Below, piece after piece: positions 276-23,649 of a stretch of 27,484 nucleotides of DNA. Positions within the stretch are counted from its first letter, which is position 1. Each line of letters begins with the position of its first letter. The notes under the pieces were generated by a model. The model did not search any database. It had not been told where the DNA came from and saw nothing but the letters and a program-made list of their open reading frames with translations. The translations under genes and the position numbers were made by a program. Source of the DNA: a virus (taxonomy: Duplodnaviria; Caudoviricetes); IMG/VR virus record IMGVR_UViG_3300033804_000009, positions 1 to 27,484 of that record; one strand, 5' to 3'.

Positions 276-3200
276 TCATTGTGCCCTCATTTGCTCCGTG
301 ACCTCTCTCATTTTGGGCATATAGGTGATCCGATCTTCGGGGGACCTAATGCCATAAAACTTTCTATTTAAAATCGGATAGAGCTTTTTCTTCTCATCCG
401 AACTGGCCACCCTAAAGACTTCAAGGACATCTTTGAATGGAAGATGGGCGACAGCATCAACCAATGGTTCTTTGGAAATCCTCGATCGAAAAGTTAGAAG
501 ATCCTGAAGTTTCAACTTCCCAGCCGCAATATCGCCATGAAATTCAGTCATAATATCTTCAGTTGGTTCATTCTTCAGAACCGCTTCTTGGTATCGTTTG
601 GCATAATTCTTAACGAGTTGACCCCTGGCAAAGTCTGCCGGTGACCTTCCACCGATCGGTAAGTGTGCAGCTTTTAACTCAGAGGCTTTTTGTTCTGCCG
701 CCGTTTTCTCTACCCAATAAGGAGCCTTGGTGCCCCCGAGAAAACCAGCGACTTGTCTGGTAGGTGTTTCTCCTTCAGCCCTCATCCTTTCAAGACTTTG
801 AATTGAGAATGGGAGTGGAACAAGATGAATAAGATCATCAATCCTCTGATAAACTATATTCTCGCTGGGATCATGAACCTGCACCCCATAAAAATCTTTG
901 TTACTAATAATGTCCTGAAATCTTCCAAACCATCCAGCCATCGATGAACCTGCATATTTAACCGGAGAGTGTGTCAGGGAGAAAAAATCTCTCGCGTAAG
1001 TAGGAAGTGAAAGCCGACCACCCTGATTATCAATTTGAGGATAAACGAGATCCTTCCAATTTTCCGGAGTTTTTCCTGTAAACGCGTATTGAGTGATTGA
1101 AGCCATTGCCGCTGTTAAAGAGAAAAGGCCCCACATCCAAGCCGCTTCCTGAGTGAGCCTTGGCTTTCTACCTTCTTTGATTGCCGAAAGGATTTCTCTT
1201 GTTTGTCCTTCAAACCCTTTTCCGTATTCGCGGATATTACCAAGTTTCCAGGTCACCGATCGCACAAACATTTGAAGTCCGGATTTAAAGGTCCGGTCCC
1301 ACCAAAGGTTATCAAAATTCATTTCTCCGAATCTGTTCTCGACAGATTTCCAGACATTCCGTGCGAGCTCTGCTTTTGTGATTTTACCAGATAGCAGATC
1401 CGCCTGTTGTTCAGTCTGTCTGAAATTAAATTCTCTGAGAAATTGTGCTCTTTTCAACGCCGGGATATAGGTTTCAAATAAGGGTTTTATCATCCATTGA
1501 GCCATTCCCGGAATCGATCGCAATGCGGCGCCAATATAATTTTTGGCGTGAAGGTTTTCTTTAAAGACATTGATTGAATTTATCCGATAGGATTCATTCA
1601 TCCTCATGGATCCGCCACCCCAATAGAGCCATCCAATATCATCGGCAGCCTGGGGAAACATCTTCATAAACTCTTGGCCTTTCGTCGTTGAAAGAAAACC
1701 CTGGGGATCCTTCATTAATCTTTCCCATTGCCGGCCTATTTGGTAAAGATCATAGCCCGCTTTTGGTGCTGTAATAATATCTTTGAGACCAGCCTCAATC
1801 TGTCCCTGGTTCCAAATTTTCCTAAGTCCAAGACCCATTTGAGAAGCAGCCGCCTCAAAAGTGATGAAGGAAGCATGGAAAGCAGAAAACCCGAGTTCCA
1901 TCGCCGTTGTCACATTTTTAATCGCCATGATACCTCTTGTAAGAGGATGTTCTCGCACAAGATCCCGAGAGAGATAGTTTTCAAGAATCCTACCTACATT
2001 ATCCTCCACAACCCACCGGCCCCTTCCAAGTTCTTTTGGAGGTCCTTCGATCATATATCTATTGAGCTTATTTGCCGCAGCTTCCCTCTTAGCCGGATCC
2101 GGATCGGACATCGCTGTCCTTCTCAGTTCAGTATCGTCAAATTTCCTCGGGAAATACTGATTTGCGATCCTATCATTAATTGCCCTGAATCCTTCCTGGA
2201 TTTCTTCACCAAATTTAACAAACTTTCTGTGACCAATGTCGAGAAGGAAATCCCACATTTTATGTGCTGTGATCAGTTTCATCGTATCCTGATAATTCAG
2301 ACGGGTCATTTCGATAAGGTTAGTCGTAAAGGGCACACCGCCATTTTCCATACCTTCCTTCAAGGTCCAGTATTGATGATGGAGCGGCGCCCTGGTTCCT
2401 TCAAGAGGCCGGCGCCAAAGTCCGCTAAATCCTTTTTTCTGGATTTCATCTTCTAAGCCCCTGGGAACTACTTTCCAGAAATTTCGGACGTGGTTTTCAA
2501 GATAAGCGATCCGCTCAGGTTCACTCAAGGATCGTAAAACAACATTGGCTTCCCCCCAAAGAGAATCCTCGATCGCCCTATGAAGACGCGCTATCTCCTT
2601 GAGATCATCCGGAAGCTCTGTCTCTCTCCCCATCTGAATCTTATCGACCAAATCAACTTGCTCAGCGGGATTCAATTTAGAAACACGATCGAAAGCCTTT
2701 TCGGTATCATATTCGACTTTAGTCTGTGCGAGTTCACGATCGCCTTTCATCCTCATCATTGCATCGAGGTCTTTGACATCGACGCCAGAAGTCGGAGCAA
2801 TTTTATTTTTCAGCCATTCCCAGGCATCTTTTGCACTCTCGATTTTCGGTTTAACTTCTTCTTCCAGGGCAACCTTCCCGACCTGTTTCCCTGTTTCTTT
2901 TATTTTGTCAGCGATTGAAAATTCGGCTGGCCTGAACGGCTCACCCAAGGGAACGGCTCCGATCGCTCGTACTTGCCTTCTCAGGGCATCGACTTTCGCC
3001 TCTCTCAGTTGAGCCTCACCGCTTGCGAGATAATCCCTGGCCTTCATAATTGTCCGCTGGATCTCCGAATCGGTGATCTTCCAATCAGGATTGAGTTTCG
3101 CAAGCTGTTCCCGAATCCATCCGTAAAGCTGTTTTAAAAGACCTGGCTCTTGACCTGATTCTGCTAATTGGGCAACCTTTTCTCTCGCGGCATTTAATCG

Positions 3201-13474: not shown

Positions 13475-14479
13475 TTAAGAAAGTGATATTGAAGCTATGT
13501 CAATCTCTTCGACGGCCTGAAGATTTGTCAATCCAATCCCAGGCGCCACCTGACCCATGAAAACATACTGCCTGTAACCCAGGTGCCATTTGATGTAAGA
13601 ATAACCTTCTTCGATGTCCAAAACGGCATAATGCTCGCTCGTGCAATCCTTAACGAATCCACCGGCAAATCCCATGAAAATTCCAATCACGGTTGAGAAG
13701 ATGCAGCATCGACCTTCTAAGCCCCCTATCCTTCCAATGTCCATTCTCTCGATTGCTACAGCTGAACCAGGGAGGGCCGGCACATCCAGGATGGTTCTGC
13801 ATCGTGTAGCCTCAAGAGAAGGCTCCAATTCATCGAGGTAATAACACTTACCGCCGCCGCTCACGTAGAGACCAACTTCTCCCCCTGGACGATTGACCGA
13901 TTTAAGCATCGTGTAGGCGCCCCCAAGATAAATGTGGTCTCTTTTGAGGTCCATCTCGAAAGGATTGCCTGAAATCGACCGGTAGATGAAATTATCGTCG
14001 CAGGAATAAAGTCGAGCATTGCAAAAGTCAAGCAGCTTTCCGCCAATCATCTTTTGACGGTCTTGGCGTGCAGTATCGGGGAACCCGTATGCTACTCCGT
14101 TCTCGATATAGCCGGTAACGGTTCGATTTGAGAAAAAGACCCTACTGCCGAGAGGCACAAATTCCATGTGGGAAATCCCGACACTTTGAACAAGCGTTTT
14201 GGTCGTCCAGTCGGTCTTGAGCTGGATGAGGTCTCCATTCAGGACAAGAAAACAAAGAGAATCTTCATCCGACCAGCCACTATGACAAGCCCCGGATTGA
14301 AGCTGAGTTAAAATGCCCTTCCTTCTTCTGGCCATTTGCTCGCTGTCAATATCCACATTGTCAGCGACCCTCACGAAGCCTTCCTCAAGGCGAAGGTCAT
14401 CCGTGCAGAGGTTATCAACGCCTCGTTGCTTCTTCAGTTCGTAGAGAGGTTGAAGGGTGTTTTGAATAAGGCGTGGCAT
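13475..14479 (-). CDS. Probable tail nozzle / stabilization-like protein (334 aa)
   Basis: N-terminal GVDN...VRVADNVDIDSEQMARRRKG matches the typical start of podovirus tail tubular B / stabilization-type beta-propeller proteins. Beta-rich throughout. Confidence 0.55.
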   Translation of the reverse strand: MPRLIQNTLQPLYELKKQRGVDNLCTDDLRLEEGFVRVADNVDIDSEQMARRRKGILTQLQSGACHSGWSDEDSLCFLVLNGDLIQLKTDWTTKTLVQSVGISHMEFVPLGSRVFFSNRTVTGYIENGVAYGFPDTARQDRQKMIGGKLLDFCNARLYSCDDNFIYRSISGNPFEMDLKRDHIYLGGAYTMLKSVNRPGGEVGLYVSGGGKCYYLDELEPSLEATRCRTILDVPALPGSAVAIERMDIGRIGGLEGRCCIFSTVIGIFMGFAGGFVKDCTSEHYAVLDIEEGYSYIKWHLGYRQYVFMGQVAPGIGLTNLQAVEEIDIASISLS

Positions 14480-16254
14480 CAGTTTCCTTTCTTCTCCGGT
14501 TTGTTTAAAAGGCTCCCGGATTGAAGACTTTCTTTAAGTGTGGCTTTTCCGGTTGCAAAATCTCCGCTTTGTTGCTTCTCTTCTTTCTTTACGCTTTGAG
14601 ATTGAATGCCTCCGCTCTTGAGCTCTTCGGCCCTGTTTATAAGCGCGTGGAGAAACTGTTTCGGAAGCATTGGAATGATTAAGATAATGCTTAACGCAAT
14701 CTCATCCGAAAGGCTGATGTTGTCAGAAAAGGTCAGTTTCGGCATCTTGGAAATAAGGTCCGTAAGCGATATTTGGTCTGAGAGGGCCTTTGAGAATATT
14801 TTTGTGATGGCATCGCTAAGGCTTATCGAATCTGCCTTTGATAAGCCGAATGTTTTTACAACCGCATCACTCAAATCCAGGGCATCGCTTTTGCTTATCG
14901 AAATCTGTTTAGAGATTTGGTCATCCAGAGTAATGGAATCGGAAAGGGACCGAATGAAGCTTACGGTGCGAGAGAATAAGTCCGTTAGGGTTATCGAATC
15001 CGTAATGGCCTTTGAGATAGCCTTAGAAATTTCGTCGGATAGCGCAATAGAATCAGACTTGGAAATATTTAAGGCTTTGGTCAAAACATCCGACAAAGAC
15101 ATCGAATCTGAAAAAACTTTCCCAGGTGTATTTACAATAGAATCGGATAGAGAAAAGGAATCGCTAAGAGAGATAAGTATGCCAAGATATGTCGTTATGA
15201 CATCGGCCAATGTTATCGAATCCGAAAAAGGTTTTGAAGGATTTTTTGAGATAATGTCCGAAAGCGAGATGCTATCAGTTATCGTTATGAGTGCAGTCCA
15301 AATCTTAGAAAAAACATCCGTGAGAGATATTGAATCTGAAAAATCCTTCCCTGGCGTTCTTATGCCCGAATCAGAGAGTGAGATTGATTCAGGACCAGGG
15401 ACAAGACTGAAAGCATTCGGGACCGTATAGGCAATAACTAATTTAGGACGAAGCGTTGTGTCGGTAGCGTATTCCCTTGTGTAAAACACTGCCTCATACT
15501 GAGTGCTCGAGTTTTCTGTTCCATCTTTTATGATTAAATTAGCAATAGAACTGGCATTCGCCTGGAACCATTGAATCAAGGTAATAACGTCCCATGACAT
15601 CCATGCTCCCGGGTTGGCTGGGACCGTTGCGGAAGCTCCGCCCGTTGTCGTGAAGTCTCCGCCAGGATTTGTCCAGGCATTGGTACCATTATATTTATTC
15701 CAAGTTACGCCCGCCTCAGTCCATGCGGTTTGAGTAAGCCGATAAGCCCAATAGGTTCTACCTGTCGGGTTATCTCGGCTACAATTCCAATAGTATAGGG
15801 AAAGTGTTGCGGATGTTATCGTCGCATTTGCCGGAAGAGAAGAAAAATCGAATCTAAGAATGCTCCTATCATTCTGATACGAAAGAAGGAATGAGTTCTC
15901 ATAACTTTGAACAGCCATGGTGGTTGCGGAGCCATAATTAGTGTCAGGGGAGTTTTGGTTCATATAAGAATCTATTGTGCTCGGCTGAAAAGTCATTGGG
16001 CTTGCTCCCGTCCTGCATCCTATCATCACGTCCGCCAAAGCAATCGCATCCGCGAAGGAAATGCCTGGAAGGGCCTTATAACATACATCTGCAAGAGCAA
16101 GGCTATCACTCAAAGATTTTGCGGCCGTCCAAATTCTTGAGAATGAATCACCTAAAGAGAAGGAATCTGCCAAAACTTTACTATACGCTTGAGGACCGCC
16201 AAAAAGGCTGCCGTATTTACAGGTCCCATATTTTGCAGTTCCGTATCCGGGCAT
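14479..16254 (-). CDS. Fibre-like protein: repeat stalk with an inserted DNRLRE/CBM96-like domain (about 591 aa)
   Basis: Start moved to ATG 16254 (SD GAGGA). DSYMNQNSPDTNYG..RSILRFDFSSLPANATITSATLSLY..RPKLVIAY is the DNRLRE-type signature (about 15425-15990), flanked by DSISLSD-type repeats. Confidence 0.7.
   Translation of the reverse strand: MPGYGTAKYGTCKYGSLFGGPQAYSKVLADSFSLGDSFSRIWTAAKSLSDSLALADVCYKALPGISFADAIALADVMIGCRTGASPMTFQPSTIDSYMNQNSPDTNYGSATTMAVQSYENSFLLSYQNDRSILRFDFSSLPANATITSATLSLYYWNCSRDNPTGRTYWAYRLTQTAWTEAGVTWNKYNGTNAWTNPGGDFTTTGGASATVPANPGAWMSWDVITLIQWFQANASSIANLIIKDGTENSSTQYEAVFYTREYATDTTLRPKLVIAYTVPNAFSLVPGPESISLSDSGIRTPGKDFSDSISLTDVFSKIWTALITITDSISLSDIISKNPSKPFSDSITLADVITTYLGILISLSDSFSLSDSIVNTPGKVFSDSMSLSDVLTKALNISKSDSIALSDEISKAISKAITDSITLTDLFSRTVSFIRSLSDSITLDDQISKQISISKSDALDLSDAVVKTFGLSKADSISLSDAITKIFSKALSDQISLTDLISKMPKLTFSDNISLSDEIALSIILIIPMLPKQFLHALINRAEELKSGGIQSQSVKKEEKQQSGDFATGKATLKESLQSGSLLNKPEKKGN
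14690..15395 (-). repeat. Coding tandem repeat: 13 units of an 18/20-aa DSISLSD motif
   Basis: Units counted in the translation, from ESISLSD, DSISLTD, DSISLSD, DSITLAD through DNISLSD, spaced 18 or 20 aa. Degenerate at DNA level. Boundaries approximate. Confidence 0.85.
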
Positions 16255-16261
16255 AAAATCC

Positions 16262-17125
16262 TCAAAAAGGCCCAATAATCGATAAATAATTGCAGGCCCA
16301 GGGTGGATTGGCTGTCGCCGTTAAATTATATGCGCCTGGCGAATAAGCCCATAGTTCAATGTAGTCTGTGGTCCCGTTGCAAAAAAACGTCCCATAAGCT
16401 GGCAAGCTGTAATAAGTTGCTGAACCAGTTACATTCCCGTAGGAAGCTAACCACCCGTTTTTATAAATCCCAGTGTAAAATGTGATAGCTGTCCCGAAGT
16501 AAACATTCCCGATTGCGATATAAAAACCGGGATAGATTGGAGTCATTCGTGATAGGCTTGGATTAAAAATGCCATTATTATCAAAGAAAGTTGTATTTAG
16601 TGCGACCTTTGCCCACCCCGTAGTGAATGATTGACCGCCGACAACATACGCATAGCATTTCGTATTTCCCCTTTGGGCAACCTGCCAAATCGTCGCCGCG
16701 GTAGGAACTAACATCATTTTGTAAGTGTCGCCGGCCGCATTCTTCGCTGACGGAAGAGTATTCTCCTGCCCCCTAACTACCTGCAGCGTGTCTGTAGGAT
16801 TGATTAGCGTGACCCGGACAACTTCAACATTCGGGTCAAGCGCTGGGTCTGTGTAGGCCGTTGCGTCCCACCAGATAAGATTGAACGGAGGCAAAGGCAA
16901 AAGAAGACCTTGTCCATTGACCAAGGCAATCGAAGTATCTGTCGAACCATAAGTTCCGTTTGGAAGAACGACTGTAAAATTACTTACTGAATCAACCCCC
17001 TGTGCAGTCTGTCCAACGGATTGCTTATTGGCGCCGGAAATCAATGCAACTCCTGGCTGCTTTGTGGCAATAATAAGCTTCCCAAATGGAGGGTCGATTC
17101 TGTTTGAACCAGTTTTATATGACAT
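16262..17125 (-). CDS. Tail fibre / receptor-binding-like protein with C-terminal C1q-like domain (287 aa)
   Basis: N-terminal DPNVEVVRVT..TLQVVRGQENT fibre anchor motif. C-terminal KVALNTTFFDNNGIFN..RMTPIYPGFY..NGTTDYIELWAY pattern resembles C1q/TNF-like jelly-roll heads. Confidence 0.65.
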   Translation of the reverse strand: MSYKTGSNRIDPPFGKLIIATKQPGVALISGANKQSVGQTAQGVDSVSNFTVVLPNGTYGSTDTSIALVNGQGLLLPLPPFNLIWWDATAYTDPALDPNVEVVRVTLINPTDTLQVVRGQENTLPSAKNAAGDTYKMMLVPTAATIWQVAQRGNTKCYAYVVGGQSFTTGWAKVALNTTFFDNNGIFNPSLSRMTPIYPGFYIAIGNVYFGTAITFYTGIYKNGWLASYGNVTGSATYYSLPAYGTFFCNGTTDYIELWAYSPGAYNLTATANPPWACNYLSIIGPF

Positions 17126-21704: not shown

Positions 21705-21736
21705 AAAAAGCCCTCAATTACTTGACCGAGGGGCTA
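21705..21736 (-). terminator. Intrinsic terminator after the major capsid gene
   Basis: Minus strand reads TAGCCCCTCGGTCAAGTAATTGAGGGCTTTTT immediately after the MCP stop: a hairpin plus U tract. Confidence 0.65.
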
Positions 21737-22624
21737 TCAGGTTATCGTCGGAGCCACATAGGTACATCCGATGGCCGACGGCTTGATCACCTGGCGACCG
21801 AAAACATGGAGGCTCTTAATGAACTTCCCGAAGGTCGTTTCAGGCTTGTCGATATAGTCCGTGTTTGTGAACTGATCGGCAAAGGTCAAGCCCAGGGGAT
21901 GACCAAAGAGGCAATAGAAACAAAGCTGGCCTGTGGTCGGATCAACCACGCTTGGAAGCAGGTTCGACGCATACAGCGTGAAATTCAAAAGCCTTCCAAG
22001 CCGACCGCTTCTCAGGGCGCTTGTCGCGTCCCCCATCATAGAGGCATCCTTGATGTCGGATGTCTTCAGGAGCATCGCCATGATTCTCGGCATGACGAAA
22101 AACTTGCTCATGTCGTCGGGAATGTTATATTCCCCGAGAACCGATTCAGCCATAGCCAATAGCTTAATGACATTGGCCGTTGTAACCTGGACCGGTGCGG
22201 AAGCCACACCTGTCGCATCGTAAACTCCGAGGTTATATGCACCGCTGATTCTACCAGCCGCGGCGCCCTGGTTCAGCGCATCGATTTGGCTGGTATTAAA
22301 AGTGGCGAATGAGCCATCGGGGTTCACGTAGCCTCTCATCCCATTGCCGATGACATAGGCCAAAACATCAGTATCAATGGCCACTTTCTCATTCTCCGTG
22401 GCGTCTTCTGCCCATTGGCTCATGAGCGCGATATCGCTCTGGTACTTATCGATATCATCCATGCCAAAGTAGAAATAGGTATTCTGGTCGATGAGCAGTT
22501 GGACGTAAGGAGATTCGATGTGGTCCGGGGCCTTGAGAGTTCCGCCCTTCTGATAGATGTTCAAATAAACCGGCACCGTGCCACGGGTCCTGATCCAGAC
22601 CAAATTACCTAACCCTTTGATTTC
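21737..22624 (-). CDS. Major capsid protein, exon 2 (295 aa; P22 coat-like / HK97-fold family)
   Basis: The frame extends 7 codons upstream of the tracked TTG start: EIKGLGNLVWIRT...LLIDQNTYFYFGMDDIDKYQSD...GRLGRLLNFTLYASNLLP...FGKFIKSLHVFGRQVIKP. No SD of its own. Joins exon 1 in frame after splicing. Confidence 0.88.
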   Translation of the reverse strand, partial: EIKGLGNLVWIRTRGTVPVYLNIYQKGGTLKAPDHIESPYVQLLIDQNTYFYFGMDDIDKYQSDIALMSQWAEDATENEKVAIDTDVLAYVIGNGMRGYVNPDGSFATFNTSQIDALNQGAAAGRISGAYNLGVYDATGVASAPVQVTTANVIKLLAMAESVLGEYNIPDDMSKFFVMPRIMAMLLKTSDIKDASMMGDATSALRSGRLGRLLNFTLYASNLLPSVVDPTTGQLCFYCLFGHPLGLTFADQFTNTDYIDKPETTFGKFIKSLHVFGRQVIKPSAIGCTYVAPTIT

Positions 22625-22699
22625 CGTAATGTTATCGGTAGGTTCTTTATCCTACCTTCTTACCCTTTCAGATAAGTCCAGATCATATCTTCTTTTTGC

Positions 22700-22728
22700 T
22701 TGAGAATAAAATCTATCGGTGATATGGT
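22700..22728 (+). promoter_or_regulatory. Putative sigma70-type promoter for the antisense HNH gene
   Basis: TTGAGA (22700-22705), 17-bp spacer ending in TGn, TATGGT (22723-22728), then 7 nt to ATG 22736. Consensus match only. Confidence 0.5.
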
Positions 22729-22735
22729 AATCTTT

Positions 22736-23326
22736 ATGAGCAAACTTTTTGAAGTTCCATTTGTAAAAGAACAGTTGGAATACGATTATCAAACAAAGAA
22801 TCTTGAGCAAATAGCCAAAAAATTCAATGTGAGCAAGCCATATGTCAGGAAGTGGATGAGAATTTATGGAATCCCCGTTAGGAAACGGCTCGCGCCTGTA
22901 AGCAAAATTCGCCAAATGGCGATGCGAGGTTTGAGCGCTTCTGAAATTGGAGAAAAGATGAATCTCACCGCTAACTACATATCGGAGGTCGGGAGGAAAT
23001 ACAAAATTCCGATTCTCGATAAATACCATACGGGCCACATTTTCACAGAAAAAGGTTATTTGCTTTTGAGAAAGCCCGAGCATCCCCATTGTAATGGCAA
23101 AGGATATGTTCGACTCCATAGGCTCGTAATGGAAGAACATTTGGGAAGAATCCTTGATCCCAAAGAACTTGTCCATCACATTAATGGGGATAGAAAAGAT
23201 AATCGCATTTCCAATTTGATGCTCACCGATAAATCTATCCATCAGTGGAGATACCATCCACCTAAAGGCAAAAAGTCCCGAGCTCTTGGGGATTTCTCCC
23301 AATCGGATACTCTCCCTGATCGTTGA
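22736..23326 (+). CDS. Intron-encoded HNH homing endonuclease with two N-terminal HTH modules (about 196 aa; alternative starts 22724 or 22700)
   Basis: [39 protein letters not shown] is a canonical phage HNH motif. [19 protein letters not shown] and [18 protein letters not shown] are HTH-like. Lies in the P8 loop, antisense to the intron. Confidence 0.9.
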
Positions 23327-23502
23327 ACCTTGACCTTCTTTCGAAGGTCCTTGGCTGCTGATTGCCCAATTCAAAGATTTTTTCGCATTCGCACTCGCCG
23401 TTACCAGCCATGCTGTAGCATCTTTGGCTCTAAGGGTATCCCAGCAATTCACGGGATTTATTGAAGGCAAAGGTTTAATGAATTTAATCATTTATCTACT
23501 CA

Positions 23503-23649
23503 ACCTTCATAATTCGTATTAGATATGTGGGTTAACACTGTGGCATCATAGAACTTTTCAACCAGCTTTGTGCTCCAAACCTCGGGTATAAACGCACTTT
23601 TCCCTTTCGAACTATAATCCACATAACCCGGTGCTATACCGTATCCCAT
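23503..23649 (-). CDS. Major capsid protein, exon 1 (49 aa)
   Basis: Not in the ORF track (under 60 aa). SD AAAGGAGGT, then MGYGIAPGYVDYSSKGKSAFIPEVWSTKLVEKFYDATVLTHISNTNYEG followed by an in-frame TGA as the first intron bases. FIPEVWS..NTNYEG-EI is the conserved N-terminus of this capsid family. Confidence 0.9.

Follow-up and report, generated by a model that had tools for sequence, protein, structure and literature searches.

Inversion between the P8 arms of a capsid-gene group I intron as a probable origin of an antisense homing endonuclease cassette in a phage

The stretch of DNA analyzed here (the window) is a linear virus record of 27,484 bases with an estimated completeness of 40%, and its virion genes lie on the minus strand. 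Our results confirm that its major capsid gene is interrupted by a group I intron (23502-22625, minus strand), within which an endonuclease gene is encoded on the plus strand (Table 1). Joining exon 1 to exon 2 yields an open 345-aa capsid frame with the junction NTNYEG/EIK, and intron-less relatives (L002 and L005-L007) show YEGEIK at the intron site. On the minus strand, 23495-22659 is matched by the Rfam model RF00028 (E 2.8e-10, 46.2 bits) without reaching the gathering score of 50, and a gathering-level Rfam scan of the window gave no match; a homologous intron, L003, scores 61.8, and the 568-nt insert in the P8 loop is likely to lower the score of the window. This match and the ORF itself bear out the earlier note on this DNA, which had placed an HNH ORF on the plus strand and the intron and the whole operon on the minus strand. 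Contigs from two sequencing runs cover the intron with no listed differences, although both may be the window's own source and hence are not independent. None of the sequencing runs listed for this DNA is an RNA run. An assembly artefact was rejected as the source of the antisense layout because eight other distinct antisense copies exist.

Table 1. Features of the interrupted capsid gene, its intron and the endonuclease cassette (positions in the window)
Feature	Position	Strand	Remarks
Major capsid protein exon 1	23503..23649	-	49 codons, NTNYEG at end, last base U
Group I intron	22625..23502	-	878 nt with G as last base (22625); additional helices between P7 and P3' (IA-like)
P1 3' strand (internal guide)	23463..23468	-	G23468 pairs with terminal U of exon 1
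R element	23316..23328	-	P6 3' strand, J6/7 UCA and P7 5' strand GAUCA at 23321-23317
P3' strand	23275..23280	-	
P8 5' arm	23268..23274	-	One edge of the inverted cassette; plus strand here codes part of the HNH tail
P8 3' arm	22693..22699	-	Other edge of the inverted cassette; directly adjoins the -35 box of the plus strand
P7 3' strand UGAUC (S element)	22681..22685	-	Partner is GAUCA
Predicted sigma-70-type promoter	22700..22728	+	TTGAGA, 17 nt, TATGGT; extended -10 TG; GGTGA conserved at 22718-22722
HTH-HTH-HNH endonuclease gene	22736..23326	+	196 aa; ATG 7 nt past -10 box; likely leaderless
Read-through tail of HNH, residues 178-196	23267..23326	+	Antisense to P8 5' arm, P3', P7.1/P7.2, P7 5' strand and J6/7; unconserved; modelled without secondary structure
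Major capsid protein exon 2	21737..22624	-	PHROG 267 major head protein, E 4.7e-25
Terminator-like hairpin 3' of capsid gene	21711..21732	-	Consensus scan only

Several observations concern the surroundings of the intron. NCBIfam profiles named neither a capsid nor a portal protein in the window. A virion-module protein encoded at 14479-16275 (minus strand) carries a CBM96/disaggregatase-repeat domain. A 279-aa minus-strand ORF at 22652-23491 was rejected as a gene; it is without Pfam or PHROG match and shadows the HNH frame. The closest relatives (81% capsid identity; L001:1-2500 and L002:1800-2440) are without this intron and have GGC, not GGT, at the site. Both bear LAGLIDADG-bearing insertions a few codons upstream of the intron site, two or three of them in L001, and the capsid N-terminus looks like an intron hotspot.

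The intron has a P3-P7 and P4-P6 core with P, Q, R and S elements, supported by covariation. In a 12-row alignment of homologous cores, 97.4% of cells are paired across the 29 pairs of P1, P3, P4, P5, P6 and P6a, compared with 36-51% in slid controls. Two-sided changes occur in 12 of these 29 pairs, a level that none of 500 shuffles reached in a test that is inflated by the relatedness of the rows. The U-G pair of P1 at the 5' splice site is present in 11 of the 12 rows, the remaining row being cut beyond the splice site. P7 reads GAUCA/UGAUC in the window, L182 and L192, whereas GACUA/UAGUC is usual in relatives, a double compensatory change; in L003 it reads GACCA/UAGUC, with one mismatch. 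Extra helices P7.1 and P7.2 between P7 and P3' are the criterion for subgroup IA, and an extra paired segment lies between P7 and P3' in the window intron. The P8 arms (23274-23268 and 22699-22693) confirm the earlier proposal of a 568-nt P8 loop at 22700-23267.

This loop is filled by the endonuclease ORF, which spans 22700-23326 when read from its first TTG. The homologous start is ATG 22736, and of the coordinates proposed earlier only the start thus needs to be moved, most likely to this codon. Two other candidate starts, TTG 22700 and ATG 22724, were rejected, as they coincide with the -35 and -10 boxes and the alignment offers no counterpart for either. The protein matches Pfam HNH_3 (E 5e-13; 48.8 bits against a cut-off of 24.8), with HTH_28 above its cut-off too, and the His and Asn residues of the HNH motif (H147, H148, N156 and H169) are invariant among 37 aligned family members. 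Its structure model is confident at residues 11-170, has no secondary structure after residue 173 and falls to pLDDT < 50 for residues 185-196. The first Foldseek hit of the model, a weak match, is I-HmuI (PDB 1u3e; probability 0.99, E 0.071, 73 columns), which likewise carries an HNH_3 catalytic module in the P8 loop of a phage intron, although the window enzyme has two N-terminal HTH repeats before the nuclease. Sequence searches of the PDB with the protein gave HTH-type matches only and no HNH match.

Purifying selection has acted among relatives of this gene. Across 10 pairs, with three sense pairs left out, dN/dS was 0.08-0.15 in four antisense pairs and 0.50 in the L182/L192 pair, and pairs that include the window gave pN of 0.35-0.40 against a saturated pS of 0.75-0.81. 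The window copy itself could nevertheless be a dead or silent passenger that was inverted, is unexpressed and is decaying. Its row has a long end branch (0.84), position 173 is Y, whereas H stands there in at least 90% of the family, and loss of the ORF does happen in short introns at the same site, as described below. However, the frame is open, all 12 residues invariant across the 37 members are kept, pN is far below pS, the promoter and start geometry are preserved and most of the fold is modelled with confidence. We consider a dead passenger highly improbable; the gene looks alive, and the intron is real and probably functional and mobile, with an antisense homing endonuclease.

Direct searches with the HNH protein found distant relatives only: in viral contigs they returned four loci, all lacking an intron match, and in 50,697 annotated phages no record reached 80% coverage of the query. 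Intron motifs were used instead to reach the family. Motif scans for an exon end plus a P3/P4 pattern returned 167 records, 108 of them distinct, with only short flanks for 29 loci from one of the scans. A capsid exon-2 or HNH match was present in 57 of the 108, and the other 51 are chance matches, other genes or too short to judge. The pattern demands P3 no more than 44 nt from the splice site, and introns with ORFs in L1 or L2 are therefore missed. Within these limits, 42 of the 57 carry the HNH gene in L8, in sense orientation in 33 and antisense in nine; 14 are short, ORF-less introns at the same site; and the last, L085, bears an antisense ORF that is unrelated and sits in a different loop. 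Thus, the antisense L8 ORFs that the earlier note suggested looking for are recurrent, but the orientation is not conserved across the family. Three further sense copies (L014, L227 and L228) lie beyond the 42. L227 and L228 come from assemblies of Halomonas and Marinobacter, which suggests carriage by prophages of Gammaproteobacteria. A Phage_integrase match was absent from all four virus records tested, three of which are incomplete, a result that is uninformative on lifestyle.

Individual loci add to this picture. Four ORF-less introns (L035, L066, L095 and L169) retain remnants of the cassette, namely the -35 side of P8 and short loops of some 80-130 nt, as would fit a loss of the endonuclease through deletion. 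One antisense homolog (L003:1577-2383, minus strand) has 269 aa and an HTH array expanded to about four repeats, and its promoter geometry is the same. The same-site capsid intron of L085 holds a 215-aa antisense ORF in the P5 region (2058-2705, minus strand), with an N-terminal zinc finger, a C-terminal motif that by eye resembles PD-(D/E)xK nucleases and a promoter-like TTG..-18-TATAAT made from intron helices. Judged from its sequence, L085 is an independent antisense invasion. Antisense ORFs also lie directly upstream of P3 in L027 (1556-2185, minus strand) and L056 (1424-2176, minus strand) and are possibly further antisense endonucleases in L1 or L2.

In this layout, the capsid mRNA cannot serve for translation of the endonuclease, which needs a plus-strand transcript of its own, as the earlier note recognized, and a sigma-70-like promoter is predicted both in the window and in its antisense relatives. 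The promoter begins at the base next after the P8 arm. Taken alone, the window promoter is no better than chance (two sites found against 3.6 expected), but a sigma-70-like site occupies the same place in all nine antisense copies. By our own scoring rule it beats shuffles in eight of them (at most 4/200 each, against 23/200 for L076), and the mean score across the antisense copies is 12.4 at the end where the ORF starts and 8.4 at the opposite end of the loop. In six of the nine, the window included, the ATG lies 6-7 nt past the -10 box, the geometry of a leaderless mRNA, whereas none of 20 well-scoring sense copies has this spacing; the remaining three antisense copies have a leader with a Shine-Dalgarno sequence. 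Sense copies bear the same promoter, beginning at the P8 5' arm. We infer that the cassette uses this promoter and that the window HNH mRNA is likely leaderless. No intrinsic terminator was found on the plus strand of the window, nor on the antisense strand of the eight copies scanned (through the 5' core and as much as 250 nt upstream), so the HNH RNA may well run into the ribozyme core, whatever the length of the ORF.

One element of the promoter is shared with the homing site. The five bases before the -10 box, GGTGA, are conserved while the rest of the spacer is not, and the intron-less capsid junction, GGT/GA, consists of the same five bases. GG and A flank the TG extension at 20 of 27 promoter-like TG sites inside these introns, compared with two of 84 elsewhere in the loci, although the copies are related and not independent. 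According to PMC2988022, I-TevI represses its own promoter through an operator that resembles its homing site. By analogy, the HTH domains of the window enzyme may act likewise, so that the endonuclease may repress itself at GGTGA, although the resemblance described for I-TevI is 15/20 and that in the window only 5 nt (PMC2988022). The match is short, and GGTGA could instead reflect polymerase preference.

The clearest view of how the two orientations are related comes from a sense copy, L132, and an antisense copy, L207. These align plus/plus over 3-249, plus/minus over 245-884 and plus/plus again over 891-1018, with both switches of orientation in the T/A-tract P8 arms. The reversed loop is 66% identical over 656 columns, and breakpoints mapped at about this identity are precise only to within a few bases. 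In a protein tree of 39 rows, made without three truncated or partial sense rows, the antisense copies group together with L132 nested inside as the sister of L207 (99/84), which forces at least two changes of orientation. An AU test, for which the group of nine was set by strand ahead of any view of the tree, rejects antisense monophyly (p 0.0009). The intron-core tree has poor resolution and by itself forces no more than one origin. One flip and one reversion would be the simplest reading, in an order that the unrooted tree does not fix.

These breakpoints fall where an inversion could be accommodated. The P8 arms form an inverted repeat, and since the reverse complement of a hairpin is again a hairpin, a flipped loop keeps P8 able to pair; in sense copies, the last codons of the ORF form the P8 3' arm. 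Recombination or template switching between the arms may have caused the inversion. Two flips over such divergence indicate a rare event rather than phase variation. Contigs from three DNA runs contained no strand-switch joints, but contigs drop rare variants and are silent on ongoing inversion. Within the antisense group, proteins share about 40-65% identity and genes and promoters are intact. The antisense state is thus old, which fits tolerance but also fits selection for antisense.

Inversion also offers an account of the overlap between the ORF and the ribozyme core. Among 30 sense copies, 23 have their stop codon at or past the boundary between P8 and J8/7 (eight at the junction, 11 in the P7 3' strand and four just after it), and a flip at P8 therefore leaves the stop behind, and the frame reads on. 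In the window, the stop (23324-23326) is complementary to the UCA of J6/7, which lies upstream of the P7 5' strand (23321-23317); this upholds the earlier placement of the stop inside R. Counted from R, the antisense stops fall at +2 (window), +26 (two), +47 (two), +50 (two), +64 and +67. Seven of the nine antisense ORFs cross P3', two stay at P8 and only that of the window crosses P7, with tails that vary in length and frame. L182 and L192, for example, end in GDFS and a stop eight codons earlier, in the same frame in which the window runs on through SQSDTLPDR to its stop. In the core creep model, an ORF is lengthened until it meets the next stop of its frame within the core, and P8 examples with overlaps of 9 and 81 nt have been tabulated (PMC3073962). 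On the sequences compared, the overlap in the window is ordinary core creep. It shares with T4 td/I-TevI, SPO1 I-HmuI (P8) and the Synechococcus lividus LSU intron (P8) a loop ORF that reaches a stop inside the core, but those overlaps are described on the sense strand, whereas that in the window is antisense and was likely triggered by an inversion that removed the stop (PMC3073962).

The earlier note saw in this overlap a regulatory switch, in which the HNH mRNA would pair with the P7/P3/P8 core or collide with late transcription, block splicing and so couple homing to capsid production. Its premise, that the transcript is antisense to the G-binding core, stands insofar as the RNA may reach the core past no detected terminator, but the ORF itself overlaps P7 in only one of nine antisense copies. 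Conservation of the promoter in all nine, the absence of terminators in the eight scanned, the crossing of P3' by seven ORFs and the persistence of the antisense state over deep divergence would all suit such a switch, and with P3' so often crossed and no terminator, a transcript opposite the core may be a general feature, in copies with a short ORF too. However, sense copies form the large majority, orientation changed at least twice, one copy having likely reverted within the antisense group, and the tails agree in neither length nor frame. In vivo, phage LittleE makes spliced mRNA and full-length capsid although its capsid intron, too, has an antisense endonuclease (PMC3706429). The proposed splicing switch is thus not supported by conservation across the copies compared, and we regard it as quite unlikely.

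Antisense placement might instead have been selected for decoupling rather than blocking. The nuclease would be kept off the abundant late capsid mRNA, the internal promoter would be kept from firing into exon 2 and the downstream virion genes, and early or prophage-state expression could act against intron-less relatives. Starts of the leaderless type occur only in antisense copies, LittleE is likewise a capsid-gene case, and family members are found in bacterial assemblies and a provirus record. L085 is an apparently independent antisense invader with a promoter-like site of its own and could mean that antisense placement is favored in capsid genes. Nonetheless, sense copies outnumber antisense ones by about 4 to 1 with the same promoter in both, the provirus and bacterial-genome copies seen are sense, and the Phage_integrase searches matched none of the virus records tested. 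Selection for decoupling therefore seems to us rather unlikely, if somewhat easier to entertain than a block on splicing.

Our results are best explained by a model, which we consider probable, of a mobile group I intron whose P8-loop cassette, a predicted sigma-70 promoter with an HTH-HTH-HNH gene, was reversed by a rare inversion that ran from one P8 arm to the other, leaving the core overlap and the antisense layout as by-products. In the sense layout, the ORF would mostly borrow its stop from J8/7 or P7, just outside P8. The inversion would turn the cassette backwards with the P8 stem still able to pair and would strand the old stop; reading would continue on the strand opposite the core until a stop first occurs in frame, which in the window lies opposite the J6/7 UCA. 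Host polymerase would supply a separate, likely leaderless, transcript for the nuclease, which would nick or cut intron-less capsid alleles in co-infections, driving homing. Antisense pairing with the capsid pre-mRNA would then be a tolerated cost, likely limited by timing, by low level and perhaps by autorepression at GGTGA. In phage, early transcription by host polymerase as against abundant late capsid mRNA would separate the HNH RNA from splicing.

An antisense endonuclease in a group I intron is in itself a known layout, found in LittleE and in nuclear rDNA introns. Work by Haugen and colleagues in 2004 reportedly described nuclear homing endonuclease genes (HEGs) that switch between sense and antisense. 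The LittleE major-capsid intron (JF937101) carries endonuclease gene 14 on the bottom strand, and spliced mRNA and full-length capsid were detected in infected cells (Pope et al. 2013, PMC3706429). Like the window, it pairs a major-capsid group I intron, about 0.8-0.9 kb in length, with an endonuclease gene that runs on the other strand; it differs in that its ORF lies downstream of P7, in the P9 region, rather than in L8, in its nuclease, which is called LAGLIDADG-related and annotated as HNH, and in its capsid insertion site (PMC3706429). A sense counterpart or an inversion is absent from the LittleE account as far as it was available to us (PMC3706429). Hence, the earlier note's view of this as the best candidate for an undescribed system is not supported: an antisense endonuclease in a splicing phage capsid intron has been published (LittleE, PMC3706429). 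Overlap of an ORF with the core has been described as core creep (PMC3073962), and antisense interference has been discussed for Didymium (PMC9548176).

In Didymium rDNA introns, antisense HEGs have promoters of their own from which they are expressed, and a separation in space and time has been proposed as the way in which interference is avoided (PMC9548176). I-DirII (Dir.S956-2) and I-DsqI (Dsq.L2066) resemble the window in that the HEG is antisense to the ribozyme and has its own promoter, from which it is expressed there and which is predicted here (PMC3073962, PMC3679873, PMC9548176). They differ in residing in eukaryotic rDNA, being His-Cys family enzymes and being transcribed by Pol II. 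Sense and antisense forms at one insertion site are a further feature that nuclear rDNA HEG introns, as described, share with the window family. The portions of PMC9548176 and PMC3679873 available to us make no mention of an inversion mechanism for antisense rDNA HEGs. In the literature searched, with most subscription papers outside its coverage, we found no report of a P8-bounded inversion or of a conserved GGTGA common to promoter and homing site. Likewise, we did not find there a single phage intron family with a promoter-gene cassette both ways round, an inversion at the P8 arms and core overlap as its consequence.

A bolder possibility, to which we give only a slim chance, is that the P8 loop is an orientation switch made from the ribozyme's own stem, in which an antisense host-polymerase transcript holds capsid splicing off until the HTH domains shut the promoter at its GGTGA mimic of the homing site. 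If true, the loop would be a self-timed circuit that places homing ahead of capsid production.

How homing genes come to lie antisense within introns, and how splicing and their mRNA are compatible, has been posed as an open question (PMC9548176). In summary, the probable inversion model for the window would provide a route by which antisense homing genes arise, namely, a flip of the gene between the two arms of its surrounding hairpin, which would leave the ribozyme intact and explain the core overlap. L132 and L207 offer a natural sense/antisense sister pair at one site.
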